Counted from the first letter of the stretch, positions 2,893 through 32,883 are shown. The stretch: DNA of 64,000 nucleotides from a virus (IMGVR_UViG_3300027848_000009:1-64000); one strand, 5' to 3'. Notes: a model not told the origin generated them from the letters alone. Numbers and translations: made by a program.

Positions 2893-2967
2893 GTGGCCCT
2901 CGGCTCCCGCCGAGGCGCTGCGATGATCTCCCGAGTTCGCCACAGGCTCGGGAGATCATCGGAGCGA
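2893..2967 (+). ncRNA. candidate cis-acting structured RNA motif, copy A
   Basis: GTGGC-CCTCGGC(tccc)GCCGAGG-C-GCTGC hairpin, then 15-bp stem CGATGATCTCCCGAG/CTCGGGAGATCATCG, then GAGCGA; intergenic. Confidence 0.65.
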
Positions 2968-2995
2968 CCGCTCCACCGACCAGAAGGACAATCAA

Positions 2996-3334
2996 ATGAG
3001 AAATCAGATCGAATCCGAAATCAGGCCTGGCACTTTCGTCGGCTTGTCGGCTCGTTGCGTCGAGGAGAACCGAGCGTCGTACAGACTACTTTCGACAGAG
3101 GTGAGCCGTTGGGAACGAATCGGTGGCCCAGCCGACGGCGAGACATACTTCGGCGGCACGCTCAACTCCGGCCCGATGCACGCTGGCGCTTGGACCGACT
3201 CCGACGGAAAGTTCCGTCACGGCACGTTCAGCTGCCATCAAGTCACCGACGTGGATCTTTCCAATCCTCGCAAGCTCGTCATCATGACGACGGACGGCGA
3301 GATCACCATCGACATCTTCGAGGAGCAGTCGTGA
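2996..3334 (+). CDS. hypothetical protein
   Basis: AGAAGGA SD; ORF. Confidence 0.7.
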   Translation: MRNQIESEIRPGTFVGLSARCVEENRASYRLLSTEVSRWERIGGPADGETYFGGTLNSGPMHAGAWTDSDGKFRHGTFSCHQVTDVDLSNPRKLVIMTTDGEITIDIFEEQS

Positions 3335-3648
3335 GCGAGATACAGACAGCAATCACGAACCCCGACGAGTACAACGGATGGGTCAACCGGGAGACGTGGG
3401 CGGCTGCGCTCCATCTCTCCAACGACGAGGGACTGTACCAGCAATGCTTGGAGCTGGTCGCTGGCAAGCTGCGCTGGTCTGCCGGTGACGCCATCGAAGC
3501 GTTCGTGATGGAGCAGGTCGAGATGATCCTGTTCCCATACGAGCACGACTGGCCGCCGACCGACCTGTGGCGCATGTTCATCTACGATGTCGGCAGCATG
3601 TGGCGTGTCGATTGGCAAGCCGTAGCCGACTCGTTCCTCACGGAATGA
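3331..3648 (+). CDS. conserved phage protein (YNGWxNxETW family)
   Basis: GTG start overlapping previous stop; EYNGWVNRETWAAALHLSNDEGLY motif. Confidence 0.75.
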   Translation: MSEIQTAITNPDEYNGWVNRETWAAALHLSNDEGLYQQCLELVAGKLRWSAGDAIEAFVMEQVEMILFPYEHDWPPTDLWRMFIYDVGSMWRVDWQAVADSFLTE

Positions 3649-3780
3649 CCGTGACGCTGACCCAATGCTCACGCTGCGGCAGATGGATCGCCGCCATGAC
3701 GATCCATCAAGGCATCTGCCCAGCCGATAGGCCAGCCCGAGTCATGAGCTCTGATCCTCTCCCATCCCATTAGACACGAA

Positions 3781-3900
3781 GCGACCTCGGCTCTGACGGC
3801 CGAGCGTTGCGATGAATCCATCAAGCCGAGAACGGTCGCCGCAAGGTCCGTCGGGGTCCGTCTGTTCCCTCATTGAGACTTGGTGGATTCATCGGAGCGA
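3781..3900 (+). ncRNA. candidate cis-acting structured RNA motif, copy B
   Basis: GCGAC-CTCGGC(tctgacg)GCCGAG-C-GTTGC, stem CGATGAATCCATCAAG/CTTGGTGGATTCATCG with a large loop, then GAGCGA. Confidence 0.65.
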
Positions 3901-3930
3901 ACCAGCCCCACCTACAGGAAGCCGAACCTG

Positions 3931-4137
3931 ATGCTCGACGCCATTCTGATCGCATCCATAATCGGCCTGCCCGCATTCGCTGGCATCCGCTGGCTCTACT
4001 ATGAAGCGATCCATTCAGCCGAGATCGACGCCGCCAGCCGCCGAGCCGTCCTGAGCGAGCTGGCAGACATTCGGGTCCATCGGCCCACCCACATCGTCAG
4101 CACCGCCGACAGCGCCGCAGAACAGCCTGAGAACTGA
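3931..4137 (+). CDS. small membrane protein
   Basis: AGGA SD, hydrophobic N-terminus MLDAILIASIIGLPAFAGIRW. Confidence 0.6.
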   Translation: MLDAILIASIIGLPAFAGIRWLYYEAIHSAEIDAASRRAVLSELADIRVHRPTHIVSTADSAAEQPEN

Positions 4138-4166
4138 TCCCTCCGGCACACCCCGAACCCGAAACG

Positions 4167-4196
4167 ACGACCGGAGTCGGGTACGGTGCCGGTATG
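4167..4196 (+). promoter_or_regulatory. leaderless promoter, class 2 (near-identical to 37097-37126)
   Basis: ACGACCGGAGTCGGG-TACGGT-GCCGGT-ATG. Confidence 0.6.
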
Positions 4197-4535
4197 AACG
4201 AAGCCGAGTTCGAGCGACAAGTCGTAGACACTGCCACCATCTTCGGATGGCGCACCGTCGGCCACCGCCCAATGCGAACCAAACAAGGATGGGCGACCGG
4301 CTGGAAATATGAAGGCGTCGGCTGGCCCGACCTCACCCTCATCCACCACACCGGAAAGATCATCGTCGCAGAAATCAAGATCCCACCAAACAAACTGTCA
4401 CCCGAACAAGCCGTCTGGCGAACCACCCTCGAAACATGCGCCACCAACAGCGAAGGCCACATCGAATACCGACTCTGGACACCCGACGACTTCAACGAAA
4501 TACTCCGCCTACTCTCACACGGCCGACAACAATGA
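4194..4535 (+). CDS. VRR-NUC domain nuclease (Holliday junction resolvase-like)
   Basis: MNEAEFERQV...GWPDLTLI...VAEIK...KLSPEQ.W PD-(D/E)xK pattern. Confidence 0.82.
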   Translation: MNEAEFERQVVDTATIFGWRTVGHRPMRTKQGWATGWKYEGVGWPDLTLIHHTGKIIVAEIKIPPNKLSPEQAVWRTTLETCATNSEGHIEYRLWTPDDFNEILRLLSHGRQQ

Positions 4536-4652
4536 ACACCAACCACAACCGCACCACCTGTGGCCCACCCGCCCACACCACCACAATCGCCAACACCCTC
4601 ATAGCGCACACCACCGAAGCCCGCCTCCACCAATGTCCACAGAAAGCCACAC

Positions 4653-5141
4653 ATGCCCAAGAAGCCTGAACCGATTGAACAGCCCTCGATGCTCGACGAG
4701 CACAAGGAGCGGATCATCCAGATGAAGCTGGCCGGTATCAGCGACCGGCAGATTGCTGATTCGCTCGGCGTGTCGAACTCGGCTGTCTCTCGGTATGTGA
4801 AGCGGGCGTCGGTGCAGTCGGCGATCGACGTTGCTCACGGCGCTCTCGTCAAGCGCGCTCAGCATCAGATGGCGATGGCGCTTGGCCTTGCTACGCAGAC
4901 GTTGATTCATTACGCCAGCATGGAGAACTTCGATACGATCCCTCATCAGCATCGGTTGAAAGCGACCGAGCTGCTCATCAGCGCTTCGGGCGCTTCTCGC
5001 TCGGTCGAGGTGAATGCGTTGTTGGCGGTGTCGGTGACGGAGATCGCTGCGAACTCTGCTCGGTCGAAGGCTGCTGCGATCGAGGCGACGTTGGTGGACA
5101 CCCCGGTCGGCGAGATCCCGCCGCTGCGGCTCGCCGAATAA
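4653..5141 (+). CDS. terminase small subunit (HTH)
   Basis: N-terminal HTH (AGISDRQIADSLGVSNSAVSRY); position upstream of TerL. Confidence 0.7.
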   Translation: MPKKPEPIEQPSMLDEHKERIIQMKLAGISDRQIADSLGVSNSAVSRYVKRASVQSAIDVAHGALVKRAQHQMAMALGLATQTLIHYASMENFDTIPHQHRLKATELLISASGASRSVEVNALLAVSVTEIAANSARSKAAAIEATLVDTPVGEIPPLRLAE

Positions 5142-5180
5142 CGCATACGGTACACGGCATCTTCCCGTGTACGGTATGCG
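5142..5180. promoter_or_regulatory. 16-bp inverted repeat overlapping a -10 box (TACGGT 5170-5175); candidate RHH operator
   Basis: CGCATACGGTACACGG-7 nt-CCGTGTACGGTATGCG (1 mismatch). Confidence 0.6.
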
Positions 5181-5182
5181 GC

Positions 5183-5332
5183 ATGTCCAGACCCAAGACC
5201 AAGGGTGACTCGATCTCGCTTCGGCTACCGATCGAACACGACCGGAAGCTCCGAGAGTTCGCTGAGGCGAAGAACGAGACACCCGCCGAAGTGATCCTTC
5301 GGGTCATGGGGCGATCGCTGGACGCCCAGTGA
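5183..5332 (+). CDS. 49-aa ribbon-helix-helix (Arc/CopG-like) DNA-binding protein, not in ORF track
   Basis: MSRPKTKGDSISLRLPIEHDRKLREFAEAKNETPAEVILRVMGRSLDAQ; stop overlaps TerL GTG (GTGA). Confidence 0.72.
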   Translation: MSRPKTKGDSISLRLPIEHDRKLREFAEAKNETPAEVILRVMGRSLDAQ

Positions 5333-6714
5333 CCGAGTCTCGTGCCGACCGGCTCGCCCGAGCGGGCAAGCTTTCGGAACTCTTCGCTCAGCTCGACGAC
5401 GACGAGGCAGCCGAGCTGGCCTACGACTGGTCTTTCTGGCAGCGACCGGAGCAGGCGATCCCGCCCGGCAATTGGGATGTCTGGATGAACCGGGCCGGAC
5501 GAGGGTACGGGAAGACACGCACCGGCTCCGAAACGATACGAGATCTCGCTCACAGCTCCCGTACAGGCTTGCTCGCAGCGGTCGCCCCAACGTCGGGCGA
5601 CGCACGGGATGTGCTTGTAGAAGGCGAATCAGGGATACTCGCTGTCTGCCCTCCGTGGGACCGCCCGAAGTACGAGCCGTCGAAGCGGCGACTGACTTGG
5701 GAATCGACCGGCGCACGACTCACCCTGTTCTCCGGCGAGGAACCCGACCGGCTCCGAGGCCCACAGCACGAGGTCGTATGGGTTGACGAACCAGCCTCGA
5801 TGGACTCGGGCGGCGAGGTGATCGACATGGCCCGCCTCGGCCTTCGGCTCGGCAAGCCGAAACTGATTATCACCGGCACCCCGAAACGGGTGGCTTGGAT
5901 GAAAGCGATCGAAGCGGAAGCGAGGACCGTCACCACGACCGGCTCAACCTACGAGAACCTCGGCAACCTCGCGCCCGCATTCATTCAGGTTGTCCTCGGC
6001 AGATACGAGGGCACCCGACTCGGCCAGCAAGAACTCCACGCCGAATACTTGGACCACGTCGATGGCGCTCTTTGGATCATGGCGACGATGGACGCCTCCC
6101 GCTTCTCCGTATGGGACGCCACGCAACCGGACGTGTCGCTGAGGGACGGGATGATGGCGCACGGCATCGAGGCACCGAAGCCCGACGGACGCATGTGGCG
6201 GACGATCGTCGCCGTTGACCCTCCCGGCGAGACAGCCGAATGCGGCATCGTCGTCGGCACCTCGCCGACCGGAGCGAAAGCGGGCAGGGACCACGCCGTG
6301 ATTCTCGCTGACGAGTCGCTCGCCGGTACACCCGAACAATGGGGAGCCGCCGTCGTCGCCGCCGCTCGCCGCTGGGACGCCCAAGCCATCTACGTCGAGA
6401 AGAACCAGGGCGGCGACATGGTCCGCTCAACGATCCACGCCGTTGACCCGTCGGTCGTCGTCAAGAAGATCACCGCCAAAGAGTCGAAGCAGGCACGAGC
6501 TGAACCTGTCTCGGCGCTCTACGCAAAGGGCTGGATACACCACGCCGGTTTCTTACCGAAGCTCGAAGACCAGATGACCGAGTGGGTTCCGAACGAGTCG
6601 AAGTCCCCTGACCGGCTCGACGCTCTCGTCCATTGTGTCCGTACTCTGCTCGAAGAAGTGCAGCCTCGCAGCGTCGGCCGAGTGGCGAGGTCATTCGGCG
6701 ACCGAAACTTCTGA
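5329..6714 (+). CDS. terL: terminase large subunit
   Basis: Walker A AGRGYGKT, RLRGPQ, Walker B WVDE, nuclease VAVDP, SPDRLDA. Confidence 0.96.
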   Translation: MTESRADRLARAGKLSELFAQLDDDEAAELAYDWSFWQRPEQAIPPGNWDVWMNRAGRGYGKTRTGSETIRDLAHSSRTGLLAAVAPTSGDARDVLVEGESGILAVCPPWDRPKYEPSKRRLTWESTGARLTLFSGEEPDRLRGPQHEVVWVDEPASMDSGGEVIDMARLGLRLGKPKLIITGTPKRVAWMKAIEAEARTVTTTGSTYENLGNLAPAFIQVVLGRYEGTRLGQQELHAEYLDHVDGALWIMATMDASRFSVWDATQPDVSLRDGMMAHGIEAPKPDGRMWRTIVAVDPPGETAECGIVVGTSPTGAKAGRDHAVILADESLAGTPEQWGAAVVAAARRWDAQAIYVEKNQGGDMVRSTIHAVDPSVVVKKITAKESKQARAEPVSALYAKGWIHHAGFLPKLEDQMTEWVPNESKSPDRLDALVHCVRTLLEEVQPRSVGRVARSFGDRNF

Positions 6715-6728
6715 CGTAGACTCGACCT

Positions 6729-7132: not shown

Positions 7133-7350
7133 TGATGTGGAGAAGGATCGCGGCTCTCTGCATCGTGGTGCCGTGGCTTCTCGTAAAGCTTGCCCGCAAC
7201 ACATACGTCACCAAAAGTGACCTGCTCGCCGAGCGGGAACGAACCGATCATGCTGTCATCGAAGAAGCAGAACTGATTGTCGCTGCCGAGGTCCGACGCC
7301 GATCCCAAGATCAACACCCCTCACAGGAGTACCCTGACAGTCATGGCTGA
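7132..7350 (+). CDS. small hypothetical protein
   Basis: TGATG coupling; hydrophobic N-terminus. Confidence 0.5.
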   Translation: MMWRRIAALCIVVPWLLVKLARNTYVTKSDLLAERERTDHAVIEEAELIVAAEVRRRSQDQHPSQEYPDSHG

Positions 7351-9253
7351 TCGCTCACCCGCACGTTCTACGCCGCACCGGTATTCGCTGGTCGCTGCCG
7401 CCGAGGTAATCGCCTCCGCCGATATCTCCCGCCCGTACACGTCTTCGGGCATGATGCTCGAATGGCAGGAGCGTGCCTGGGGCTACTATGACCGGGTTGG
7501 CGAGTTCCGTTTCGGTGTCGGCTGGTGTTCGAATGCGATGTCGAGAGTGAACCTGACTGCTGCTGCTCCGCCCAGGCAGGTCGGCGACGAGCCGACAGCG
7601 ATCGACGTGGAGAGCGACGAGGTGACGCCATCGCAGCGGCGTGCGATTGAGCTGGTCGAGCAGATCGCGGGCGGAGCTTCCGGCCAGGGGCAACTGTTGG
7701 GCGAGTTCGGTTCGCATCTTTCGATCGCCGGGTTCGGCTGGCTTGTTGCGGAGCCGAGGCTCGGAGATCCGAACTCCGATTCGTATGAGACGTGGCAGGT
7801 GCTGCCGCAGGATGCCCTGAAGTTTGAGGGCACGACCAACCAAAAGATTTTCCTCCGTATCGGAGACGGCAACAAAAGCGACGCCTGGCGACCGGTACAC
7901 CCGAACTCGCTGATCGTCAAAGTGTGGCGTAAGCATCCTCGTAAGCCGTGGCAGCCGGACGCCCCGGTCCGGGCCGTGCTCCCCGTATTGGAGATCATCG
8001 AGCTGCTCACCGATCACATTACAGCGTCGGGCCGCTCACGTCTCGCTGGTGCCGGTCTGCTTGCGATCCCGTCGGAGACAGAGTTTCCGCCACCGCCTCC
8101 GGTCGAGGGTGAGACGACCGTTGCCACCGAGCAGGATCGGTTCGACCATTTCGTCGAAGAGTTGACGAACGCCATGACAACGCCGATCAAGAATCGGCAG
8201 TCCGCTGCTGCTGTCGTGCCTTTGCCGATCGCGATCCCCGGCGAGTTCATCGACAAGATCAAACACATCTCATTCTCGACGCCGTTCGACGCCCAGGTCC
8301 GCGAGCTGATGGAGGATGCGATCAAGCGTCTGGCGCTCGGCCTCGACATGCCGCCCGAGGTGTTGACCGGCATGTCCGGTGTGAATCATTGGACGGCGTG
8401 GCAGGTCGAAGAGACAGCGATCACCCTACACATCGAGCCGAATGCTGAGATCGTCTGCAACGCTCTGACCGAAGCATGGTTGAAGCCTGCTCTGCGTGCC
8501 GAGGGGTTCGATGAGAACGCTGCGATGGTCTGGTATGACACGAGCGACCTGACTTCTCCGCCCGACAAGTCAGGCTCGGCTGTCGAGGTGTACGACCGCA
8601 TCCAGCTATCTGCTCAGGCGTTGCGTCGGGAGACTGGATTCACCGAGGATGACAAGCCGAACGAGGACGAGTTCCGCCAACGGGTTCTGCTCGATGCTGC
8701 GAAGGGCGCTCCGGCGCTCGCACCGTCGATGCTGGCGAAAGCTGGCATCCTCGCCGAAGAGATCGCCGACGCAGTGGCCGACATCCAGGCTCCCGCATCA
8801 GCCCCTATTTCGCCGTCTACGGAGTCGGAAGCCGGATCTGGCCCAGTTAGGTCCGCACCGTCCCGTGACGGCAGGCCGAGCCAGGTTTCTGCGGCGCTCG
8901 ATTCGGCGGTCATCATGGCTTGCGATGGCATCGTGGACCGGGCGATGGAGATGGCAGGCAAACGTCTCCTCGGAGCGATCGGCCGCAAGACCGGGCACGG
9001 TCCACAGGGTGTGGATAAGAAGGGCGATGCCCGCATATTGCATCTCCAATATGATCCGACGGTGTACGCCGACCTCGACCAGCTACTCACCGGCTCGTTC
9101 GATCGGGTCGGAGTCGTCGCCGAATACTTGGGTATCGACGAAGACGCTCTGCTCGCAACATTGAACGCATACTGCCGTGGCCTGCTGGCTGCCCAACACG
9201 AGCACGATCTGATCCGGCTGTCGGCGGCGCTCGGCGCTGACGTAATGGTCTGA
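7343..9253 (+). CDS. portal protein
   Basis: WQERAWGYYDRVGEFRF, RSRLAGAGLLAIP, LALGLDMPPEVLTG..NHWTAW (actinophage portal); TACCCT -10 before ATG 7343. Confidence 0.9.
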   Translation: MADRSPARSTPHRYSLVAAAEVIASADISRPYTSSGMMLEWQERAWGYYDRVGEFRFGVGWCSNAMSRVNLTAAAPPRQVGDEPTAIDVESDEVTPSQRRAIELVEQIAGGASGQGQLLGEFGSHLSIAGFGWLVAEPRLGDPNSDSYETWQVLPQDALKFEGTTNQKIFLRIGDGNKSDAWRPVHPNSLIVKVWRKHPRKPWQPDAPVRAVLPVLEIIELLTDHITASGRSRLAGAGLLAIPSETEFPPPPPVEGETTVATEQDRFDHFVEELTNAMTTPIKNRQSAAAVVPLPIAIPGEFIDKIKHISFSTPFDAQVRELMEDAIKRLALGLDMPPEVLTGMSGVNHWTAWQVEETAITLHIEPNAEIVCNALTEAWLKPALRAEGFDENAAMVWYDTSDLTSPPDKSGSAVEVYDRIQLSAQALRRETGFTEDDKPNEDEFRQRVLLDAAKGAPALAPSMLAKAGILAEEIADAVADIQAPASAPISPSTESEAGSGPVRSAPSRDGRPSQVSAALDSAVIMACDGIVDRAMEMAGKRLLGAIGRKTGHGPQGVDKKGDARILHLQYDPTVYADLDQLLTGSFDRVGVVAEYLGIDEDALLATLNAYCRGLLAAQHEHDLIRLSAALGADVMV

Positions 9254-9255
9254 CG

Positions 9256-10101
9256 ATGGCGACTCCGCCACCACTCAAAGCTGACGAGAATGGCTTCGTC
9301 TCCGAAGCCGACTTCGAGGAGTGGATCGTTTCTTGGGAGGTCGAGTCGGCCCGCCTGATGGGCGACGCCGCAGCGAAGATCGCCGAGGAGCATCTCAACA
9401 TGTACGTCGAGACTTTGGTGGCGGCGGGCGACCCTGCTGTTTTCGATGCGATGACAGCCGAGTGGCAGGTAGCTGTCGATGAGTTCTTGGCGCTCGGTGT
9501 GAAGCCGCTGTATTTGCAAGGTTCGATTGGTGCCCAGTTGGGTGCGCCGTTGATGCCGGTCGATCTGCTGGCGACATGGACCCAGGTCGTGAATGTGAAC
9601 GCAGCGAACTATGTGATGACGGCCAGCAACCGGATCGTTGGTGCGTCGTCGTCGATCTGGTCGCAGGTCCAATTTGCTGCCGAGCAGTCGATCTCATCTG
9701 GCGTCGAGATTCCGAAGCTCCGCAAGGAGGTCGAGAACATCACTGGGTATGCGCGTGGCCGGGCACAGGCGATCGCTCGCACCGAGGTGATGGGCGCATA
9801 CAATGGTGGCGACATGGATGGCGCTCGGGCGCTCGGCGCTTACGGCCCTGTGGAGAAGTCTTGGTTGGCGACGGGTGGGCCGCGTACTCGTGAGAGCCAC
9901 GCCGAGGCTGACGGGCAGACTGTGTTGATGGAGGAGTCGTTCATCGTGGGTGGTGTGGCGATGGATCGCCCGCTCGATCCGTCTGGCCCTGCGGAGGAGG
10001 TCGTGAATTGTCGGTGCGTGATGCAAATGTTTTTCGTGGGCGACACTCGGCCGGATGGGACGACGATCGAGGCGGCGACCGAAGAGGCTCCACCAGAATA
10101 G
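9256..10101 (+). CDS. MuF-like minor head protein
   Basis: RAQAIARTE, KSWLAT..RTRESH..ADGQ, P.DPSGPAEEVVNCRC. Confidence 0.9.
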   Translation: MATPPPLKADENGFVSEADFEEWIVSWEVESARLMGDAAAKIAEEHLNMYVETLVAAGDPAVFDAMTAEWQVAVDEFLALGVKPLYLQGSIGAQLGAPLMPVDLLATWTQVVNVNAANYVMTASNRIVGASSSIWSQVQFAAEQSISSGVEIPKLRKEVENITGYARGRAQAIARTEVMGAYNGGDMDGARALGAYGPVEKSWLATGGPRTRESHAEADGQTVLMEESFIVGGVAMDRPLDPSGPAEEVVNCRCVMQMFFVGDTRPDGTTIEAATEEAPPE

Positions 10102-10154
10102 TTTCGGGTTGAGGGTTGACGACCCGACTCGGGTCGGATAAGATGATTGACATG
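10093..10154 (+). promoter_or_regulatory. conserved promoter/operator, copy 2
   Basis: TTGACG(10116)-17-TAAGAT(10139)-7-ATG; palindrome 10120-10136. Confidence 0.88.
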
Positions 10155-10409
10155 ACCGACACGACAACCTTCCCCATCTCGACCTCCACGACGACCGGCA
10201 CCGACGCCGAGACTGGCCGACGGTGGGCCGAGTTCCGAGTCCTCGCAAACGGCAACTACATCGGCCAGGCAATCGAGATCACGGCGGGCGGCTGCTGGGC
10301 CTCCTTCGGTCACGGTGACCGCCCGGCCGGAACCTTCACCACGAAGACCGACGCCAGCCTCAAGCTCGCCGCCGACTACGCCGCCATGATGGCCACCCGG
10401 CCCTTCTGA
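10152..10409 (+). CDS. moron gene 1, hypothetical
   Basis: Leaderless ATG after conserved promoter. Confidence 0.7.
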   Translation: MTDTTTFPISTSTTTGTDAETGRRWAEFRVLANGNYIGQAIEITAGGCWASFGHGDRPAGTFTTKTDASLKLAADYAAMMATRPF

Positions 10410-10456
10410 TGCCCCTCGCCTCCCGAACCTCGAACCCGACCAGAAAAGAGAATGCG

Positions 10457-10918
10457 ATGACAACCTCCACGACCCTCCGATCCGAAGCCGCCCGGCATGA
10501 GCAGGACGCCGCCGACAGCTTCGACCGCTGCGACACCGACGGCTTCGTCAGCCAATGGGCGTCCGGCTGCATGGCAGCCAAGAAGCGCCTCGCCGCTGCC
10601 ATCGCCGACCGGGGTGGAGTCGCTGAGTTCCCGGCGCTCTTCGATCTCGACGGCAACCTGGTCGCCGCCAAGCTGATCGACGGCAAATACGGGATGGTCT
10701 GGGGCATCCTCGCCTCCGACGATCCGGCGAGCGACATCACCGAATGGGTGACGGCATTCCCGGTGCGTGAGTCCACGATGGCGAAGAAGGGCTACGCCGA
10801 GGGCATGGTCCTCGCACCGGCCTACGCCGACCTCCGAGGTGCCAACGCCTGCAACGTCACCGCCCGCTCCATCCGCACCGACGGCGGATTCTCCCGCAAC
10901 GTCGAGATCGTCGCCTGA
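10457..10918 (+). CDS. moron gene 2, conserved actinophage hypothetical (SFDRCDTDGFxSQWA)
   Basis: ORF with purine-rich SD region; motif recurrent in actinophages. Confidence 0.75.
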   Translation: MTTSTTLRSEAARHEQDAADSFDRCDTDGFVSQWASGCMAAKKRLAAAIADRGGVAEFPALFDLDGNLVAAKLIDGKYGMVWGILASDDPASDITEWVTAFPVRESTMAKKGYAEGMVLAPAYADLRGANACNVTARSIRTDGGFSRNVEIVA

Positions 10919-10936
10919 GTCGATCAGCCAGTCAGC

Positions 10937-10973
10937 GAGCGCCCCGACCGGAACATGGGTCGGGGCGCTCTTT
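10937..10973 (+). terminator. intrinsic terminator closing the moron
   Basis: 13-bp stem GAGCGCCCCGACC/GGTCGGGGCGCTC followed by TTT. Confidence 0.75.
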
Positions 10974-11048: not shown

Positions 11049-12431
11049 ATGAGGCTCGCACTCGAAGACAACAAGGTCACACTCGCCGAAGATGACGCTC
11101 TCCTGGAGGACTCGCTCGACGACATGGAAGACGCGCTCGACGACGTGGCGGTGGCCGACGACCTCGAACCGGACGACAGCTTCGACGGCCGAACCAAATG
11201 GATTCTGCTCGTCGAGGGCATCGAGACAGGCGACAAACGACTCTTCGAAGAAGGCGCGATCACATGGCGAGATCTCCCGCTCCCGCTCATGGCGACCGAC
11301 ATGACCGGCAACGGCCACGACGGCGCACAGCTCGTCGGCCGGTTCGTCGAGATCTACCGTGAGGGCAACCAGGTCATCGGCGTGTCCGAGCCGATCGACT
11401 CCGACGACGACAACGTGCTCCGACTCCAGAGGCTCATCGACAGCGGCGACCTCAAAGGAATCTCTGTGGACCTCGACAACATCGAAGGCTCGATGATCGT
11501 CGAAGAGATGCCCGACCCGACCGAGAACGAAGACGGCACAATCGGCATTGATATGTCGATGCCGAAGATCCGTATCTCCGCCGCCCGCATCATGGGTGCG
11601 ACCGGCGTCCCGTTCCCGGCGTTCGCCGAGGCCCACCAGATCCAAGCCAGCCTCATCGCCGGAGCGATGTCGCTCGACACCCTCCAGACCGCAGACGTGG
11701 CCCTCATCAATGCGCCAGTCCGACCGCCGCTCCACTGGTTCGATGACCCTGGCTTCGTGGGCCCGACGCCGATGGATGTCGAGTCCGACGGATACATCCG
11801 AGGCCACGTCGCTCTCTGGGCGTCATGCCATCGCGGCTTCGATTCCTGCACCCCTCCGCCTCGCGCCCCATCCGGCAACTACGAGCACTTCCACACCGGC
11901 CAGATCATCACGGCCGACGGCTCGAAGATCGGCGTCGGCAACATCACCGTCGATTCCGGTCACGCCGACATCAGAGCGAATGCCAACCTCGCCAAAGAGC
12001 ACTACGACAACACCGGCTGGATCGGTGCCGACGTGCGTTGCGGCGAGGACAGCTTCGGTATCTGGATGGCCGGTGCGATCCGCTCCGACATCAGCCCTGA
12101 GATGTTGCGGGCGCTGATGGCAACCGACGTTTCTGGGGACTGGAGGTCGATCAACGGACGCTTACGACTGATCGGGCTGGCCTCGATTCCGGTGCCCGGT
12201 TTCGTCAAGACTCAGGTCGCCTCGGGTGAGCTTCTTGCGATGGTCGCCTCGATCCCGGTGTGCGCCGCCGACCTCGACCCGATCGACCTACGAATAGCAG
12301 ACAGGATCGCCCTCTCAGTAGGCCGTACACGAGAGCAAATCATGGCAGATCGAGATCGTGTCGCATACGGCATCGGACGCCACCCAGCGCAGCAGAGAGC
12401 TGCCCTGGCAAACCGGATTCATGGCAAGTAG
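11049..12431 (+). CDS. capsid maturation protease (cluster-B-like)
   Basis: EGIETGDKR...LPLPLM...GHDGA..VG; GATGVPFPAF.EA; GHVALW.SCH; SGDWR; lies between MuF and MCP. Confidence 0.8.
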   Translation: MRLALEDNKVTLAEDDALLEDSLDDMEDALDDVAVADDLEPDDSFDGRTKWILLVEGIETGDKRLFEEGAITWRDLPLPLMATDMTGNGHDGAQLVGRFVEIYREGNQVIGVSEPIDSDDDNVLRLQRLIDSGDLKGISVDLDNIEGSMIVEEMPDPTENEDGTIGIDMSMPKIRISAARIMGATGVPFPAFAEAHQIQASLIAGAMSLDTLQTADVALINAPVRPPLHWFDDPGFVGPTPMDVESDGYIRGHVALWASCHRGFDSCTPPPRAPSGNYEHFHTGQIITADGSKIGVGNITVDSGHADIRANANLAKEHYDNTGWIGADVRCGEDSFGIWMAGAIRSDISPEMLRALMATDVSGDWRSINGRLRLIGLASIPVPGFVKTQVASGELLAMVASIPVCAADLDPIDLRIADRIALSVGRTREQIMADRDRVAYGIGRHPAQQRAALANRIHGK

Positions 12432-12753: not shown

Positions 12754-14340
12754 ATGGACACCAATCTTCCCGAATCCTTCGACGGCATCACCGATGCTGA
12801 GCTTGACGCAATGGAAGCGTCGATCATCGAAGAGTTCGACGCAAAGTACGACAACGACACCCCGGCACCAGTCGCCGACCTGACCGAGATCGCCGAGGCA
12901 CTCGATGCCGTGCGCTCCGAGCAGGCTGCCCGCACCGAGCAGGCTGACGCCGACTCCGAGGCGCGCGCTGCTCTCGGTGACCGGGTTCGCCCAGTCGCCG
13001 AAGAAGATGTCTTCGAGGAGATCGTCGCCGAAGTCGTCGAAGAGATCGAAGTTGCCGAAGAGCTGGAGTTGGTCACCGCCAGCCTCAAGCCGAAGGCACC
13101 GTCCGCTCGCCGCATGGCGACTCGCGACGTGACTCCTCCCGCTGCCGAAGCGAAGCAGATGACAACGATCACTGCCGCTGCCGACATCCCTGGAATCACT
13201 TCCGGCTCGCAGCTCGACCGCATGGGACTGGCACGAGCATTCGCTGCCCGTTCCCGTGGCCTCGCTGACCACTCGCCTCGTGTGGGTGTCGCAACCGTGG
13301 ACACCGGAATCCCCGAAGAGCACTTCGTGCGTGACGGTGGAGACTCCGCCTCGCAGGTCATGGAAGCGGTCGTCGCTTCCTCGCTCCGTGGCAAAGATGC
13401 CCAGTCCCTCGTCGCTTCGGGTGGCTTCTGCACCCCGTCGGAGAACATGTACGAGCTGTTCAGCATCGAAAGCCGTGACGGTCTTCTCGACCTCCCGACG
13501 ATGGGCGTGTCACGCGGTGGCATCAACATCCCGAGTTACATCGGCTTGTCCGATGTTTCTTCGGCGCTGTGGACCTGGACGGAGGCGACCGACATCACGC
13601 CGGGCGCATCGGTCAAGGCTTGCCTGCAAGTTCCGTGCCCGACCTGGACTGACTACCGGCTCATCGCCGAGGGTCTGTGCTTGACGGCTGGCAACTTCAT
13701 GGACAAGAGCTACCCCGAGATGCTGGCCCGCACGACGGACCTCGCGATGACCGCCCACATGCACCGTGTGTCGGCAGCTCATCTCGCAGCCATCGTCGCC
13801 GGGGCAACCGCGGTCACCGTGACCTCGCTCCCGACCGACGCCGCTGGCGACATCCTGAGCGCCGTAGACCTTCAAGTCGCTGACTACCGGAGCACCTTCA
13901 CGATGTCTCCGAACGCAGTGCTCGAAGCGGTCTTCCCGACCTGGGTTCGTGGAGCAATCCGCTCCACCCTCGCAGCCCGTGCAGGCATCGGATACTTCGA
14001 TGTCAGCGACGAGGACATCACCCGGTTCTTCACGATCCGCGGTGTGCGTCCTCAGTTCGTGACCGGACAAGATCCGATCACGACCGGCACAGCGCTCACG
14101 GCATGGCCGACGACGACCACCTTCCTGCTGTTCCCGGCAGGCGGCTACGTCGCAGGCGACGGCGGCACGATCGACCTCGGTGTCGTTCGTGACTCGACGC
14201 TCAACGCAACCAACGACTTCACGTTGGCTTGGACGGAGCAGTTCATGCTGACCGCCCAGCGTGGTCCTGCTGCACGCAACGTCACCGTCTCGACGGTTGT
14301 TGACGGGCAGACCGGCGGACCTGAGTTCGTCGGAGCCTGA
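12754..14340 (+). CDS. major capsid (hexamer) protein with N-terminal scaffold region
   Basis: AGGAGG SD; LVASGGFCTPSE..Y, DGLLDLP, KACLQVPCP, GTIDLGVVRDSTLN..NDF (cluster B-type MCP). Confidence 0.9.
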   Translation: MDTNLPESFDGITDAELDAMEASIIEEFDAKYDNDTPAPVADLTEIAEALDAVRSEQAARTEQADADSEARAALGDRVRPVAEEDVFEEIVAEVVEEIEVAEELELVTASLKPKAPSARRMATRDVTPPAAEAKQMTTITAAADIPGITSGSQLDRMGLARAFAARSRGLADHSPRVGVATVDTGIPEEHFVRDGGDSASQVMEAVVASSLRGKDAQSLVASGGFCTPSENMYELFSIESRDGLLDLPTMGVSRGGINIPSYIGLSDVSSALWTWTEATDITPGASVKACLQVPCPTWTDYRLIAEGLCLTAGNFMDKSYPEMLARTTDLAMTAHMHRVSAAHLAAIVAGATAVTVTSLPTDAAGDILSAVDLQVADYRSTFTMSPNAVLEAVFPTWVRGAIRSTLAARAGIGYFDVSDEDITRFFTIRGVRPQFVTGQDPITTGTALTAWPTTTTFLLFPAGGYVAGDGGTIDLGVVRDSTLNATNDFTLAWTEQFMLTAQRGPAARNVTVSTVVDGQTGGPEFVGA

Positions 14341-14352
14341 GTAAGTTTCTGA

Positions 14353-14395
14353 GGATCGACGCAACCTTCTCCCCTGGGGGTTGCGTCGGTCCTTT
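14353..14395 (+). terminator. intrinsic terminator after MCP
   Basis: GGATCGACGCAACCTT/GGGGTTGCGTCGGTCC stem plus TTT. Confidence 0.7.
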
Positions 14396-29742: not shown

Positions 29743-29748
29743 CGCTCA

Positions 29749-29922: not shown

Positions 29923-29994
29923 ATCGGATGCAGCCGTAGGCGAGGTCGGTTGAGCGTTGATCGGTCGGCTCGCCCCGGTCGGGTGCAGGCCAGC

Positions 29995-30318
29995 TCACGA
30001 CCAAGACCAAATGTTGGTTCGGGTCTGCGCTGCCTGCTGGCCTGCCTTCGCTCTGGTCGCTCGACGGTGCGCCGAGTCTCTGAGCTTCGATGGATCAACG
30101 ACCTCGATGCGTAGTGACTGCCATTTACCATCGACCTTCCGTTGCCATGTGCCGTCAATCTTCCGCATCGGGAGTCCGGTGTGAGATAGCGTGCCAGCAT
30201 TCCGCTGCTTGATGCACTGCTTGCATCGCTTGCAGCCTTTGCCGTCGATGTAGGTGTTTGCCTTCGTGAATGGGTGCTCGCGCTTGCAATGCGTTGCTAT
30301 GTTTCGTTTTCTTTCCAC
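29995..30318 (-). CDS. zinc-binding protein (THCKRxH...NTY...RCKQC HNH-associated domain)
   Basis: ATHCKREHPFTKANTYIDGKGCKRCKQC. Confidence 0.6.
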   Translation of the reverse strand: MERKRNIATHCKREHPFTKANTYIDGKGCKRCKQCIKQRNAGTLSHTGLPMRKIDGTWQRKVDGKWQSLRIEVVDPSKLRDSAHRRATRAKAGQQAAQTRTNIWSWS

Positions 30319-30320
30319 GA

Positions 30321-30749
30321 TCAGAACGGATCTTCTTCGCCGTACACCGGGTCGGCTGGCTTGGCTTGGCTTCGCTGCGGCGAGCTGGTCCGCTCGGCGC
30401 GAATAACTTCGCATGTCGCCCATCGGAGATCCGGTCCGACGGAATCGGCAACGACCTCGGTGACCGACTTCTCGTTTCCTTCCCTGTCGGTGTAGTTGCG
30501 TTGCGAGAGTCGGCCGATCACGATGAGCCGGTTACCTTTCTGGAGGCTGGCGGCGCAGTTCTCGCCGAGTTCTGCCCAGGCGGTGACGTTGAAAAATGAG
30601 ACTTCCTCTTTCCATTCGTTCGTCGCCTTATCCATCCAGCGTCGGTTGCAGGCGATGCCGAATGAGGCGACGCCTCGACCGCCCGCCGTGTATCTGAGAT
30701 CCGGCTCGCGGGTGAGGTTCCCGACGAGTGTGACTTGTGCGTCGCTCAT
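30321..30749 (-). CDS. ssb: single-stranded DNA-binding protein
   Basis: VTLVGNLTREPDLRYT..G..VASF, FFNVTAW.ELGENC..SL.KG, acidic EEDPF tail. Confidence 0.95.
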   Translation of the reverse strand: MSDAQVTLVGNLTREPDLRYTAGGRGVASFGIACNRRWMDKATNEWKEEVSFFNVTAWAELGENCAASLQKGNRLIVIGRLSQRNYTDREGNEKSVTEVVADSVGPDLRWATCEVIRAERTSSPQRSQAKPADPVYGEEDPF

Positions 30750-30982
30750 GATTTTGATTCTCCTTGTTGATGTTCGATGTTGGACGGCGACCAGATGGTC
30801 ACCGTGTCGTCGTCGGCGTGATGGTCGCTCCATGTGAATGCCATCGGCAAGCCTTGATGTGTGGCCGGTAACCAAATGTGTTCGCCTTCATGCCCGTCAT
30901 AGCCGCAGCATTGGCGGATCATGTCGGGCATCACGAGGGCAGCGGACGGGCAGCGTTGGCCCTCATCTTGATCTTCGATCAC
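30746..30982 (-). CDS. hypothetical protein
   Basis: GTG start overlapping ERF stop; C...GHEGEH motif. Confidence 0.55.
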   Translation of the reverse strand: MIEDQDEGQRCPSAALVMPDMIRQCCGYDGHEGEHIWLPATHQGLPMAFTWSDHHADDDTVTIWSPSNIEHQQGESKS

Positions 30983-31557
30983 TGCCCGGTCCGAGCCTTC
31001 GTCCATGTCAGAGCGTCGCCGTGCTTCGACTCGGGGAGAGCGGACAGGGCTGACCCGAACTCGTCGGTGAATGCTGCGACGAACTCGCCGACCTCGGCCT
31101 TCTGCATCGTGGAGATGATGAGACGGATCTGAGTCTCTGCTTCGGTCCTCATGTTGGGTGTCGCCTCCGCCCGGTGGGCGATGCCTCCATCGTCGTCGTG
31201 GGCTTCGAGAGCGAACAGCGAGGTGAGTGCGTAGCGGCGCATGTAGGTGATCGCCGAGCCTGCCTGCTGTGGGTCGCCTTTGACTGGGAAGCCTGGCCCT
31301 GGGAAGGCGATTCGTTCGCCGGTCTGGGTGCAGATCAGCAGCGTCGTGATGACCATGTTGCCGTCGGCGATCTCGATTGGCTGAGCGAGCGACATCTGGT
31401 GCTGTGCGAGGACAGGTTTGAGTCCAGCCAGGATCTGGTTGATGTCCGCATACTTGTAGCTGAATGTCTCGTTGATCTTGGCCGACTGGTCCTTGACGAC
31501 CTTCTCGACCGAGGCGAGGACGTTGGCGAACCTGGTCATCATTTCTGGCGTGTCCAT
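30979..31557 (-). CDS. ERF-family single-strand annealing recombinase
   Basis: YKYADINQI, DPQQAGSAITYMRRYAL..LF...DDDG. Confidence 0.9.
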   Translation of the reverse strand: MDTPEMMTRFANVLASVEKVVKDQSAKINETFSYKYADINQILAGLKPVLAQHQMSLAQPIEIADGNMVITTLLICTQTGERIAFPGPGFPVKGDPQQAGSAITYMRRYALTSLFALEAHDDDGGIAHRAEATPNMRTEAETQIRLIISTMQKAEVGEFVAAFTDEFGSALSALPESKHGDALTWTKARTGQ

Positions 31558-31583
31558 GTTGTTCTCTTTCTGTTGGGGATGAT

Positions 31584-32159
31584 TCATGACTGGTCTTCGT
31601 CGGCCGCGAATTGGACTGACCATGACGGCTCGGGCATGGATGCTTCGACACCGGGGATGATCTCGCCGTTCCCGTCCACCATGAAGCGGAAGTCGGGCGA
31701 GGTGTTGGCGATCGACTTGATGCCGGTCACGTTGATCGTCCGGCCGAGGATGTCGGGATGATTGATCTCCGCCCAGGCGAGCGTCGCTGCCTTGTCGGTG
31801 AATGTCAGGGTCGGTGTGTTCGACACTCGGATCTTCGACGTGCCGTAGGGCAGCTCGATCGACTTACGCTTCGGGTCGTCTCGGAGGAGGGCACGGTGCA
31901 ATGATTCGATCGGTGCTTGATGCCATGCGATCTGGTTGTTGAAGATGCGGCGGCGGTGGAGGCGGCGGATCTCCAGCCGGTCCATCTCGGCTTGGTACAC
32001 GGCGTCGATCTCGTCACGTTGTGCGGTTGCTCTTGCTGCCATCTTCAGGTGCCAGGATGCACGGTCGAGCGCTTCGGCTGTGCCTTCGGGCATGAGGGCC
32101 GGGGTGTCGTAGTCGATGTCCGGCTCGTCGCCGATGGGGATGTCCATGTCTTCGTTCAT
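31584..32159 (-). CDS. Mu Gam-like host-nuclease inhibitor
   Basis: Helical N-terminus, KSIELPYGTSKIR, GEIIPGV. Confidence 0.75.
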   Translation of the reverse strand: MNEDMDIPIGDEPDIDYDTPALMPEGTAEALDRASWHLKMAARATAQRDEIDAVYQAEMDRLEIRRLHRRRIFNNQIAWHQAPIESLHRALLRDDPKRKSIELPYGTSKIRVSNTPTLTFTDKAATLAWAEINHPDILGRTINVTGIKSIANTSPDFRFMVDGNGEIIPGVEASMPEPSWSVQFAADEDQS

Positions 32160-32216
32160 TGGTTTCTCGTTTCAGGGTTGTCCTCGACGGGGTGCCGAGA
32201 TTGGTGGAACAGCCAC

Positions 32217-32245
32217 AGTCTACCCGACCCGAGTCGGTCTGGCTA
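32217..32245 (-). promoter_or_regulatory. divergent leftward promoter with operator variant
   Basis: Minus strand TAGCCA-GACCGACTCGGGTCGGG(17)-TAGACT upstream of gam-erf-ssb. Confidence 0.7.
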
Positions 32246-32256
32246 CCTCCAATCTT

Positions 32257-32318
32257 CCAGAATAGTTTCGGGTTGAGGGTTGACGACCCGACTCGGGTCG
32301 GATAGAGTGATTGACATG
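32257..32318 (+). promoter_or_regulatory. conserved promoter/operator, copy 3
   Basis: TTGACG(32280)-17-TAGAGT(32303)-7-ATG; palindrome 32284-32300. Confidence 0.88.
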
Positions 32319-32558
32319 ACCAACCAGACAAACTCCACCACCCACCAGTTTGCGGCATCGCAGATCGAGGTCGGCGACGAAATCCTGATCCGAGTTCACT
32401 CGACGAACCCGAACGACTTCCAGCGTCGCCGCCACTACCTGAAAGTGCTCGCCACCAACGGCGACGGATACAAGGTCAAGGTCTTCACCGACCAGGGCGA
32501 GATGTCCTTCCGCAACTCCGACATCGTCGAGATCGTCACCCACGGCTGGACCGCATGA
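32316..32558 (+). CDS. small beta-rich hypothetical protein (leaderless)
   Basis: AASQIEVGDEI SH3-like start. Confidence 0.7.
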   Translation: MTNQTNSTTHQFAASQIEVGDEILIRVHSTNPNDFQRRRHYLKVLATNGDGYKVKVFTDQGEMSFRNSDIVEIVTHGWTA

Positions 32559-32815
32559 TGACCGCCGCAACCACCACCAAAATCGCAGCCGCCAGCCTCG
32601 TTCCCGGCGACTTCATCATCAGCCGTATCGGTATCCCTCGCAAGATCATCGCAGTCTGGGGCAACGTTGAGATCGAGTTCGCAGACGGTTCCACTCAGGG
32701 AATTCACCCCGATCACACCGTCACGATCATCGCCACCGAAGCCCGAGCGATCTGCGATGGCCTCGGCCACGGCTACCCCGGTGGCGGTCCCTGCCCGCTC
32801 GAAGATCGCTGGTAA
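32555..32815 (+). CDS. small hypothetical protein
   Basis: AASLVPGDFI, similar pattern to previous gene; ATGA coupling. Confidence 0.65.
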   Translation: MMTAATTTKIAAASLVPGDFIISRIGIPRKIIAVWGNVEIEFADGSTQGIHPDHTVTIIATEARAICDGLGHGYPGGGPCPLEDRW

Positions 32816-32820
32816 GCGAA

Positions 32821-32883
32821 GCGACCTCGGCTACGGCCGAGCGTTGCGAAGGTCTTCCCGAGTCGGGCGGATCTTCGGAGCGA
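32821..32883 (+). ncRNA. candidate cis-acting structured RNA motif, copy C
   Basis: GCGAC-CTCGGC(UACG)GCCGAG-C-GTTGC, stem CGAAGGTC/GATCTTCG, then GAGCGA. Confidence 0.65.

Follow-up and report, generated by a model that had tools for sequence, protein, structure and literature searches.

Background

The early and late RNase III sites of T7 (and T3) include R0.3, R0.5, R1, R1.1 and R1.3. Long polycistronic transcripts carry them between cistrons, with several related copies per genome. Each copy forms a stem with a small internal loop, the copies are alike in sequence, and the cut leaves a 3' hairpin on the upstream message. Such a site has a duplex of around 20 bp, or some two helical turns, in which an internal loop is common, and strict conservation of its sequence is not required. 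Antitermination signals are another kind of phage RNA. The lambda nut sites, built from boxA plus boxB, act as RNA together with a phage protein, and nutR follows cro. The put RNAs of HK022 make RNA polymerase resistant to terminators without protein factors, via the beta' zinc-binding domain. They are about 70 nt long with two stem-loops and occur twice per genome, 0-270 nt downstream of PL/PR, and the putL and putR copies share sequence (PMC9378689).

The SAS/ESAS repeats are known from Cluster K mycobacteriophages (PMC3203893) and Cluster EF Microbacterium phages (PMC7302621). They are clade-specific, stand before the start codons of some non-structural genes and have no known function (PMC3203893; PMC7302621). 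An imperfect inverted repeat with a variable spacer is combined with a strictly conserved asymmetric sequence, and SAS itself is a 13-mer at the RBS with 10-19 copies per genome (PMC3203893; PMC7302621).

Results

The window is a 64,000-nt stretch of a 155,887-nt viral record (IMGVR_UViG_3300027848_000009). The nearest protein matches are to actinophages.

The same folded RNA element is found in three intergenic gaps of one uncultured 41-kb phage (copies A, B and C, Table 1). The pattern CTCGGC-N3-8-GCCGAG-N0-2-CGYTGCGA has exactly 3 matches in the window (2899, 3786 and 32826), all on the + strand, versus 0 in 100 shuffles. This agrees with the original prediction of three copies sharing one architecture. 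There are no copies beyond these in the whole record. Four related phage contigs carry nine more at matching gene positions, for a total of 12 distinct sequences at orthologous positions on 5 contigs. The element is absent from phages whose terminase is at most 73% identical. It is about 80-130 nt long. In copies A, B and C it starts 5-7 nt after a stop codon, and some 20-25 nt separate its end from the start codon that follows. Copies A and B are 0.9 kb apart in one operon. The genes directly downstream of the three copies are unrelated to each other.

The common plan on the + strand is three abutting hairpins joined by two 9-base linkers. The first (H1) is a GC hairpin with a bulge, the second (H2) varies in sequence, and the small third one (H3) pairs GGAGCG with CGCUCC. 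Linker b (GCGYUGCGA) and linker c (UCGGAGCGA) are invariant in 12/12 copies. The 5-bp lower stem claimed for H1 is there in both of its versions, and so are the bulged C, the CUCGGC/GCCGAG upper stem and the C(UACG)G loop of copy C. H2 had been described as directly abutting H1 and keeping its pairing while its sequence varies, and folding bears this out: the sequence is wholly different between copies A, B and C, the length ranges over 29-83 nt, and the pairing is always kept. The description did not mention that in copy B the long stem of H2 carries two further small hairpins as its cap. It also lacked H3, in which GGAGCG pairs with a downstream CGCUCC/CGCUUC. An invariant GAGCGA had been placed about 30 nt before the start codon. 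We find GGAGCGA invariant at 2961-2967, 3894-3900 and 32877-32883, ending 28, 30 and 34 nt before the starts at 2996, 3931 and 32918. After H3 come some 20-25 unpaired, C/A-rich bases with the RBS of the next gene. The RBS (GAAGGA, AGGAAG, AAGAAAGAA) is separate from GGAGCGA and varies between copies. The conserved letters are located in helix strands and junctions, and no ligand-pocket-like conserved loops were seen in the element. This placement suits a site for a protein or nuclease, or a strand-exchange switch, more than it suits a metabolite riboswitch.

Table 1. Positions of the parts of each copy and of nearby promoters, genes and a terminator in the window
Feature	Position	Strand	Details
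Promoter TTGACG-N17-TAGAGT	2459..2487	+	palindromic spacer; ~400 nt 5' of copy A
Leaderless gene after that promoter	2494-2886	+	
Copy A H1	2893..2921	+	lower stem GUGGC/GCUGC (two G·U pairs), bulged C on 3' side
Copy A H1 upper stem	within 2893..2921	+	7 bp CCUCGGC/GCCGAGG, loop UCCC; MFE, RNAalifold (5 orthologs)
Copy A H2	2922..2960	+	perfect 14-16 bp stem GAUGAUCUCCCGAG/CUCGGGAGAUCAUC, loop 7-11 nt; MFE, RNAalifold
Copy A linker c and H3	2961..2974	+	UCGGAGCGA; GGAGC-GACC-GCUCC
Copy A tail	2975..2995	+	ACCGACCAGAAGGACAAUCAA, single-stranded, C/A-rich; RBS of gene 2996-3334
Copy B H1	3781..3810	+	lower stem GCGAC/GUUGC, bulged C, upper stem CUCGGCU/GGCCGAG
Copy B H2	3811..3893	+	15-19 bp stem capped by junction with two small hairpins
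Copy B GGAGCGA and weak H3	3894..3909	+	GGAGCG..AGCCCC; 2/6 H3 pairs broken in the window's copy
Strong intrinsic terminator	10937..10970	+	13-bp GC stem then UUUGCGUU; inside packaging/head operon, 7 kb 3' of copies A and B
Promoter identical to 2459..2487	32280..32308	+	~500 nt 5' of copy C
Leaderless gene after that promoter	32316-32558		then gene 32555-32815
Copy C H1	32821..32847	+	GCGAC/GUUGC, bulged C, CUCGGC/GCCGAG, UACG tetraloop
Copy C H2	32848..32876	+	8 + 4 bp stem, apex CCCGAGUCGGG = 11-mer core of promoter palindrome
Copy C GGAGCGA and H3	32877..32893	+	GGAGCG-AUCCC-CGCUUC

RNAalifold recovers H1, H2 and H3 unaided for the A-type and B-type orthologs. Covariation had been proposed as a check, and compensatory pairs are present among orthologs in H1 and H2; 97.8-98.1% of cells are paired versus 31-51% with the partners slid, in a sample of 5 closely related contigs where most compensatory changes fall on one split. 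The ortholog alignments hold no compensatory change supporting H3. In copy A all 12 H1 pairs are invariant among orthologs, while two H2 pairs are altered on both sides and there are G-C/G-U switches. The upper stem of copy B's H1 changes from CUCGGC/GCCGAG to CUCGGG/CCCGAG in three orthologs. Its H2 has 7 pairs with changes on both sides, both inner hairpins included (RNAalifold, 5 orthologs), or 4 when counted on the named structure. The G2 ortholog of copy C has A-U changed to G-U in H1, and CCCGACUCGGG in place of the apex CCCGAGUCGGG.

The proteins just downstream of copy A are 54-65% identical to those of three more distant contigs, and those just downstream of copy B are 37-54% identical. 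Beside neighbours that are only 37-65% identical, the invariant linkers and compensatory changes show selection on the element. Fold energies on the + strand (z = -6.5, -2.0 and -3.8 for the three copies) are lower than on the - strand (-3.0, -0.6 and +0.4). With model R2 the + strand reaches 87-102 bits and the reverse 15-25 bits, and there are 49 G·U pairs versus 3 A·C mismatches. All three favour the + strand, so the element is RNA. It is cis-acting, structured and transcribed within polycistronic phage messages.

Linkers b and c can also pair with each other. A CGYU:AGCG alternative had been suggested, and it is real in that RNAalifold chooses it on a mixed alignment. The two states divide four segments differently, as a:b plus c:d in the tandem hairpins or as b:c. 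In 12/12 copies the b:c fold has nearly the same energy as the tandem hairpins, the difference ranging from -3.2 to +4.2 kcal/mol. Without b:c, H2 has 14-16 bp in copy A, 15-19 bp in copy B and 12 bp in copy C. With it, the duplex runs across a conserved 1x1 G·G loop and reaches 4 + 17 bp (21 bp) in copy A, more than that in copy B, and 4 + 9 + 4 bp (~17 bp) with two 1x1 loops in copy C. The a:b helix is supported by covariation, an R-Y switch between copy types. Such support is not possible for b:c because c never varies.

In the window the element is placed in early or middle operons, 3' of repeated promoters. Copy B is about 1.3 kb downstream of a TTGACG-N17-TAGAGT promoter, and copies A and C are closer. 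The claim that all copies follow early promoters stands in the window, but it needs qualifying for copy A in the relative L040. There the preceding gene directly abuts another gene with no adjoining gap for a promoter, and the nearest promoter-sized gap is at least 2.6 kb away. The operator core CCCGANTCGGG had been reported in the loop of copy C and is indeed in its H2 apex. It has 5 sites in all versus 0.12 expected, and the others are at four promoters. The terminator at 10937..10970 follows a small promoter-gene cassette, the whole forming a promoter-genes-terminator unit at 10116-10970. A terminator at 14350-14392 and a U-less hairpin at 34126-34165 are other candidate targets for read-through.

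Rfam 15 at gathering thresholds gives 0 matches across the whole window. The best hits of permissive searches around the copies are miRNA-like hairpins at 25 bits (100 required) and an SAH riboswitch at 19 (37 required). The element thus matches no catalogued RNA family, as had been expected. It resembles the T7 RNase III sites in having multiple similar intercistronic copies and a stem with a small internal loop, but there is no sequence relation. It has three abutting hairpins, its long duplex exists only in the predicted b:c fold, its internal loop is not an asymmetric bubble but a 1x1 G·G, and the duplex of copy C is short. Like HK022 put it has adjoining stem-loops (H1 bulged) in more than one copy per genome, and in the window these stand between early promoters and terminators. 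However, it shows no sequence or model similarity to put, it has a third hairpin, an H2 of 29-83 nt and two copies in one operon, and its proximity to promoters is inconsistent. The put analogy that had been drawn is architectural only. Lambda nutL/nutR share with it a conserved linear sequence and a hairpin after the first gene of an early operon, but it lacks similarity to boxA/boxB, no N-like protein was found, and its hairpins are much larger and more stable.

The likeness to SAS/ESAS is a clade-specific inverted repeat with an invariant sequence before start codons. The element differs in that the start is 28-34 nt or more downstream of its invariant 9-mers, its RBS is separate and variable, and two to three hairpins show clear RNA-type covariation. 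We do not count it among these repeats, since GGAGCGA ends 28-34 nt before the start and there are only 2-3 copies per genome. Nor is it a canonical intrinsic terminator. No U tract follows any hairpin; the bases are GAUGA/GAAGG after H1, GGAGCGA after H2 and ACC after H3.

Discussion

We tentatively prefer to read the element as an intercistronic processing and stability site, by analogy with the RNase III sites of T7. When b and c pair, H2 would become one long duplex of ~17 bp to >21 bp with the conserved G·G mismatch inside. A double-strand-specific endonuclease could cut there, be it the RNase III of the host or a different nuclease that recognises the conserved GGAG linker. The upstream message would retain H1 as a protective 3' hairpin and the downstream message would begin near its RBS, so the expression of the flanking genes would be uncoupled. 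We infer that the competition of a:b plus c:d with b:c may set the cleavable fraction of the RNA, and that a ribosome terminating just upstream could shift the balance. We favour processing because b:c extends H2 across the G·G loop, because the position is strictly intercistronic and right after the stop codon, and because several similar copies lie between early genes as the T7 sites do. The missing U tract, which means it is not a canonical terminator, also counts for processing. It must be noted that, for RNase III, copy C's extended duplex is short at ~17 bp, two mismatches included. RNase III also has no need for sequences as strictly conserved as b, c and the upper stem of H1, a pattern that fits contact with a sequence-specific protein or RNA polymerase equally well.

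That conservation would suit a conserved machine, as in a processive antitermination signal whose nascent hairpins or linkers load onto RNA polymerase, in the manner of HK022 put or lambda nut, for read-through of downstream terminators. The adjoining stem-loops with a conserved junction sequence downstream of early promoters in the window would suit this as well. Strong terminators do lie downstream in the same direction, and the cassette one is conserved in G1 and L040. However, L052, a relative without the element, has strong internal terminators too. A single signal should be enough, yet copies A and B sit in one operon. The promoters at 10116, 35814 and 39823 have no element behind them, copy A of L040 is far from any possible promoter gap, the promoter-proximal genes showed no arginine-rich N-like protein, and no Rfam model is similar. 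We consider antitermination unlikely on balance, though worth keeping in mind. One can also imagine a simple U-tract-less terminator or insulator at the end of a short promoter-gene unit, like the genuine unit at 10116-10970. Very stable hairpins (to -42.7 kcal/mol in 60 nt) do stand right after the stop codons of promoter-proximal genes. However, 0/12 copies have a U tract and terminator scans report none, while this phage uses canonical U-tract terminators elsewhere. Such a terminator would also sit ahead of the terminase/head genes, which follow A and B without any intervening promoter-like site of the phage's own type, and invariant linkers are superfluous for it. This makes termination quite improbable.

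Control of translation has about the standing of antitermination, a modest chance at best. Here the element would tune 30S access to the next start or couple cistrons across the 100-150 nt gap, as a switch whose state depends on a bound protein or on a ribosome that terminates 5-7 nt upstream. The element spans the region from the stop codon to ~20-25 nt before the start codon. Segment c contains GGAG, the core of a Shine-Dalgarno sequence, and an anti-SD-like CUCC in d holds it. The two folds are almost equal in energy, and the doubly-pairing segments (b, c) never vary whereas the singly-pairing ones (a, d) do, as a switch predicts. There is even a precedent in the conserved inverted repeats before start codons of actinophages (PMC3203893). 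However, the true RBS and start codon are unpaired in both folds, so the switch has no obvious output to gate. The a:d helix is in different registers in A and B/C types and is not formed in the window's copy B, H3 lacks compensatory support and is partly broken in that copy, and the three downstream genes are unrelated. The last scenario needs no RNA function at all. The element would be a DNA-level feature or relic: a decayed promoter cassette, a roadblock site for a palindrome-reading protein, or a recombination linker between gene modules. The palindrome core in the apex of copy C points this way, as do the CCCGAG and CUCGGG half-sites in copy A's H2. The b-H2-c part of copy C can be aligned by eye with the promoter (GTTG(A)CGA ... 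CCCGANTCGGG ... CGGAT ... RGAGYGA), but this match is ambiguous because MAFFT aligned H1 to the palindrome instead. Copies A and B have no palindrome core, and the TTGCGA-GAGCGA boxes are spaced 28-80 nt apart, not 17. Loops of 3 to ~50 nt between the arms exclude one fixed double-stranded DNA site, no homology breakpoint between phages falls at the element, and the G·U excess and strand bias indicate RNA. The invariant linkers and compensatory changes show selection. We very much doubt a purely DNA-level origin.

There is also a small chance that the element is a bistable RNA device. Its four segments would swap partners (a:b + c:d versus b:c + a:d) around two inserted hairpins, and a terminating ribosome or polymerase would read the state. 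It could then be a put-like factor-independent polymerase modifier or a translation-sensing switch, self-contained and without a known relative. If so, RNA-only elongation control or long-range coupling of cistrons would extend beyond the lambdoid cases.

Architecture of the element

The original prediction was of a two-hairpin motif in three copies. The three copies are confirmed: the pattern CTCGGC-N3-8-GCCGAG-N0-2-CGYTGCGA matches at 2899, 3786 and 32826, on the + strand only, and never in 100 shuffles. Neither this pattern nor the covariance model finds a further copy in the whole record, which is 155,887 nt long in IMG/VR and of which the window is the first 64 kb. The copies occupy rare gaps among otherwise tightly packed genes (see table). 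Each copy starts 5-7 nt past the upstream stop codon. The architecture is sharper than the first reading had it, with three hairpins, two invariant linkers and an alternative pairing.

The + strand RNA forms three hairpins (H1, H2 and H3) that abut without a spacer. The earlier description of H1 stands: it has a lower stem of 5 bp (GUGGC/GCUGC in copy A, GCGAC/GUUGC in B and C), a bulged C on the 3' side, an upper stem CUCGGC/GCCGAG of 6-7 bp, and a loop of 4-5 nt in the window copies, which is UACG in copy C. One G·U pair in the lower stem is invariant across all copies. H2 also has the ends described for it. It begins GA(U/A)G and closes C(A/U)UC, while the rest is wholly different among copies A, B and C, whose H2 lengths are 39, 83 and 29 nt. 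In H3, GGAGCG pairs with CGCUCC in A or CGCUUC in C; copy B of the window has a poor partner, AGCCCC. Downstream of H3 come about 20-25 unpaired C/A-rich bases that include the ribosome-binding site, ahead of the start codon.

Two 9-mer linkers are invariant in 12/12 copies. Segment b, GCG(Y)UGCGA, provides the 3' strand of the H1 lower stem and the first H2 bases. Segment c, UCGGAGCGA, provides the last H2 bases and the 5' strand of H3. Their partners, segment a (the H1 5' strand) and segment d (the H3 3' strand), are variable. The alternative pairing of CGYU with AGCG that had been proposed is upheld: b pairs with c across a G·G mismatch, the helix runs on into H2, and RNAalifold chooses this fold on the mixed alignment. 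When each fold is forced, the tandem and b:c forms differ by just -3.2 to +4.2 kcal/mol in all 12 copies. Segments a and d can pair in the second fold, with A-type copies using another register than B- and C-type copies; in copy B of the window this helix does not form. Since the registers are inconsistent, the a:d helix may be a by-product of other complementarities. A partner-exchange switch would be expected to fix b and c and to leave a and d free to vary. The same pattern would equally result if the b:c helix, G·G mismatch included, were itself recognised.

Coordinates of features in phage A, the ~41-kb siphovirus-type genome of the window, and of promoter cassettes in its relatives
Feature	Position	Genome	Remarks
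Copy A gap	between genes 2494-2886 and 2996-3334	phage A	
Copy B gap	between genes 3645-3773 and 3931-4137	phage A	
Copy C gap	between genes 32555-32815 and 32918-34111	phage A	
Terminase	5329-6714	phage A	
Portal	7277-9253	phage A	
Mu-F-like head protein	9256-10101	phage A	
Head protease/capsid-type protein	11049-12431	phage A	
SSB/Erf/Gam block	30321-32159	phage A	leftward
phrog_1362 protein	32918-34111	phage A	directly after copy C gap
Replication initiator	34248-35045	phage A	
ParB-like protein	37354-37983	phage A	
Promoter-like cassettes	2459, 10116, 32280, 39823	phage A	TTGACG-N17-TAGAGT (TAAGAT at 10116); spacer is palindrome CGACCCGAcTCGGGTCG; ATG 6-8 nt later
Variant cassette	35814	phage A	palindrome and TAGAGT kept; longer leader behind
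Intrinsic U-tract terminators	10937-10970, ~14350-14392	phage A	
Promoter cassettes	2600-2692, 7330-7398, 13040-13114	L052	AACCGACGA-like palindrome
Promoter cassette loci		L026/L029	

Evidence for a structured RNA

Several lines of evidence point to an RNA rather than a double-stranded DNA site. For copies A, B and C the fold z-scores are -6.5, -2.0 and -3.8 on the + strand versus -3.0, -0.6 and +0.4 on the - strand. A second covariance model gives 87-102 bits forward versus 15-25 bits on the reverse strand. The constrained folds hold 49 G·U pairs versus only 3 A·C single mismatches, and the loops between the arms vary from 3 to ~50 nt.

The covariation that had been claimed is borne out as well. 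RNAalifold, unguided, recovers H1, H2 and H3 from clean ortholog alignments. Among the orthologs of copy B 7 pairs are altered on both sides yet still paired, in a sample of five closely related contigs where the majority of double changes fall on one split. They comprise one pair of the H1 upper stem (C-G to G-C), three of the H2 stem and three from the two little hairpins capping H2, which makes copy B a multi-helix RNA of ~125 nt. In L046, a related contig, copy B has GA changed to AG opposite UU, and both pairs are held via wobble. In the orthologs of copy A, two-sided changes affect two H2 pairs (U-A/C-G to C-G/A-U in L046); the carriers G002 and L040 show mismatched intermediates. Between copy types, the H1 lower stem goes from A-U to G-C and from C-G to U-G. 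Paired cells make up 97.8-98.1%, versus 31-51% after a shift of the 3' partners by 1-3 columns. It must be noted that some A-type H1 stems are out of register in the mixed-type model alignment (A6/A8), which inflates the both-sides-changed counts in H1 and is why we rely on the per-type ortholog alignments. H3 has no compensatory support.

Distribution among related phages

Pattern scans of IMG/VR found two related contigs, G001 (40,353 nt) and G002 (24,314 nt). Exact-pattern scans of JGI metagenomes and GTDB genomes returned only these two, with their metagenome twins, plus matches that lack the rest of the element and have a zero model score, and so are due to chance. Searches with single proteins of the locus gave no carriers beyond G001 and G002, and BLASTN of 2400-4400 against 50,697 phage records gave no match. 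Going through terminase homologues added two more carriers, L040 with its near-identical contigs (96% identity) and L046 (84%). No copy is present in five more distant relatives, L048, L049 and L051-L053, with terminase identities of 73%, 71%, 71%, 68% and 65%; the absence in L048 is weak evidence because this contig has just 1.9 kb upstream of its terminase gene. Folding the gene gaps of the more distant relatives yielded no look-alike. A weak model match in G001 (L027 14118-14223) was rejected as an unrelated hairpin.

There are 12 distinct copies in total: each of the five contigs carries A and B, and two of them, the window and G002, also carry C. The genes behind them are orthologous. Their proteins are 54-65% identical to those of G002, L040 and L046 after copy A and 37-54% after copy B; in G001, the closest contig, the values are 92% and 80%. 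The element is confined to a narrow phage clade. In L041, one of the near-identical contigs, a DUF7249 gene call (4469-5005, 178 aa) spans copy B (4847-5000), probably because the frame or a stop codon differs there or because the gene was called too long. In L046 the Mu-F-like head protein is fused to an ADPrib_exo_Tox ADP-ribosyltransferase domain (8223-10586, 787 aa).

Bases 1 to ~43,000 of the window look like a complete siphovirus-type genome of 60-64% GC with nearly all genes on the + strand, and beyond ~43 kb GC falls to ~52%. The record is composite in appearance, a ~41-kb phage at 60-64% GC and then phage DNA at ~50-57% GC. Three stretches, 411-470, 634-933 and 1177-1433, have second copies at 41538-41597, 41755-42054 and 42227-42483 (80-99% identity), and phage A modules find short matches around 150.0 and 153.4 kb of the record. 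It could be a circularly permuted genome from mixed strains wrapping round, or an assembly join.

Promoters, palindrome and terminators

Phage A has five promoter-like cassettes, one of them a variant. The cassette, with its -35 box, palindromic spacer, TAGAGT-like -10 and leaderless ATGAC... start, is also found in more distant relatives. The first codons behind the promoters are alike (MTTTTT, MTDTTT, MTNQTN). The palindrome is CGACCCGAcTCGGGTCG in phage A, CCCGAAC-GT-GGTCGGG in G001 and CTCGACTCGGGTCGA in G002, and this difference hints at regulators diverging together with their sites. The element linkers are unchanged in G001 and G002 where the palindrome has changed.

Apart from four promoters, the sequence CCCGANTCGGG is found solely at the apex of H2 in copy C. 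The G002 ortholog of copy C retains the palindrome core at this apex with its central base flipped, and H2 of copy A has both half-sites 11 nt apart. Aligned by eye, b-H2-c of copy C fits the promoter only if two complementary insertions are allowed. MAFFT favoured an alignment of H1 with the palindrome instead, so the homology of copy C to the promoter is ambiguous. Copy C may also serve as a DNA site for the protein that binds the palindrome, an idea that cannot account for copies A and B. The leader of the variant cassette (35840-35900) holds GGGCUACGGCCC, a C(UACG)G-type hairpin that has the 10-mer GGCTACGGCC in common with H1 of copy C; the covariance model does not score it as a copy.

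Positions 10116-10970 are a self-contained unit inside the head operon. Its promoter is followed by a gene for 87 aa, a gene for 169 aa (phrog_5855) and a strong U-tract terminator, the last also conserved in both G001 and L040. Transcription that reaches the head genes from upstream has to pass this terminator or restart beyond it. A very stable hairpin without a U tract, CUGCCCGGCCAC CUCGCA AUCG UGCGGAG GUGGCCGGGCAG (34126-34165, -42 kcal/mol within 60 nt), lies between the phrog_1362 and replication initiator genes, 1.2 kb downstream of copy C, and has a second small hairpin behind it.

Identity and function

The element had not been assignable to a named family, and Rfam agrees, with zero matches at both gathering and permissive thresholds. 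A canonical terminator is rejected since 0/12 copies have a U tract and phage A has textbook terminators elsewhere. A hammerhead or other ribozyme is rejected as well: CUGCGAUGA resembles CUGAUGA in copy A alone, GAAA is absent, and Rfam is negative. A coding feature in copy B, a 39-codon ORF ending in TGATG at 3929-3933 (by eye), is likewise rejected, being stopped early in the G002 ortholog. The idea that GGAGCGA is a ribosome-binding site elsewhere in phage A fails because the candidate at 36049 falls within an HNH-type gene (35903-36271). The start-associated repeats of actinophages (SAS/ESAS) differ in that the invariant letters of the element lie 28-34 nt before the start codon, away from the ribosome-binding site. 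They are not matched in the strict sense, as the element has only 2-3 copies per genome.

We rank an intercistronic processing and stability site first, though only as a tentative candidate. The copies are strictly intercistronic and directly behind a stop codon, each genome has multiple similar copies, the b:c form is a long duplex with a conserved internal mismatch, and a terminator tail is absent. In build and placement the element appears to agree with the RNase III sites of T7. Two adjoining hairpins in an early operon with terminators downstream would also suit antitermination by an RNA of the HK022 put or lambda nut kind. This we consider unlikely, as one operon holds two copies, copy A of L040 has no adjacent promoter, some promoters have no element behind them, and terminators also occur in relatives that lack the element. 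No N-like arginine-rich antiterminator is obvious among the promoter-proximal proteins, and co-occurrence of the element with internal terminators does not discriminate.

One can imagine a translational switch instead, given near-isoenergetic folds and an element that begins close to the upstream stop codon. It is an improbable reading too; neither fold occupies the true ribosome-binding site. The two readings least consistent with the data are termination without a U tract and a DNA-level site or relic, and we regard each as very improbable. A processing site is only the leading candidate, and all functional roles here are candidates for an element whose reach is limited by its narrow clade.

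The element is a genuine, uncatalogued, clade-restricted structured RNA. Phage gene expression is rich in short RNA signals, but to our knowledge few have been described beyond the model coliphages. For a phage known only from uncultured DNA, this one is defined unusually well: its 12 copies carry compensatory changes, and its two invariant 9-mers have two pairing options, their neighbours or each other. It offers a concrete, mutable target for asking how such phages partition a long transcript into parts under separate control. As a nuclease site, it would be a useful annotation mark for this phage clade. Should it turn out to be an antiterminator made of RNA alone or a switch that senses translation, its class would gain a rare new example.
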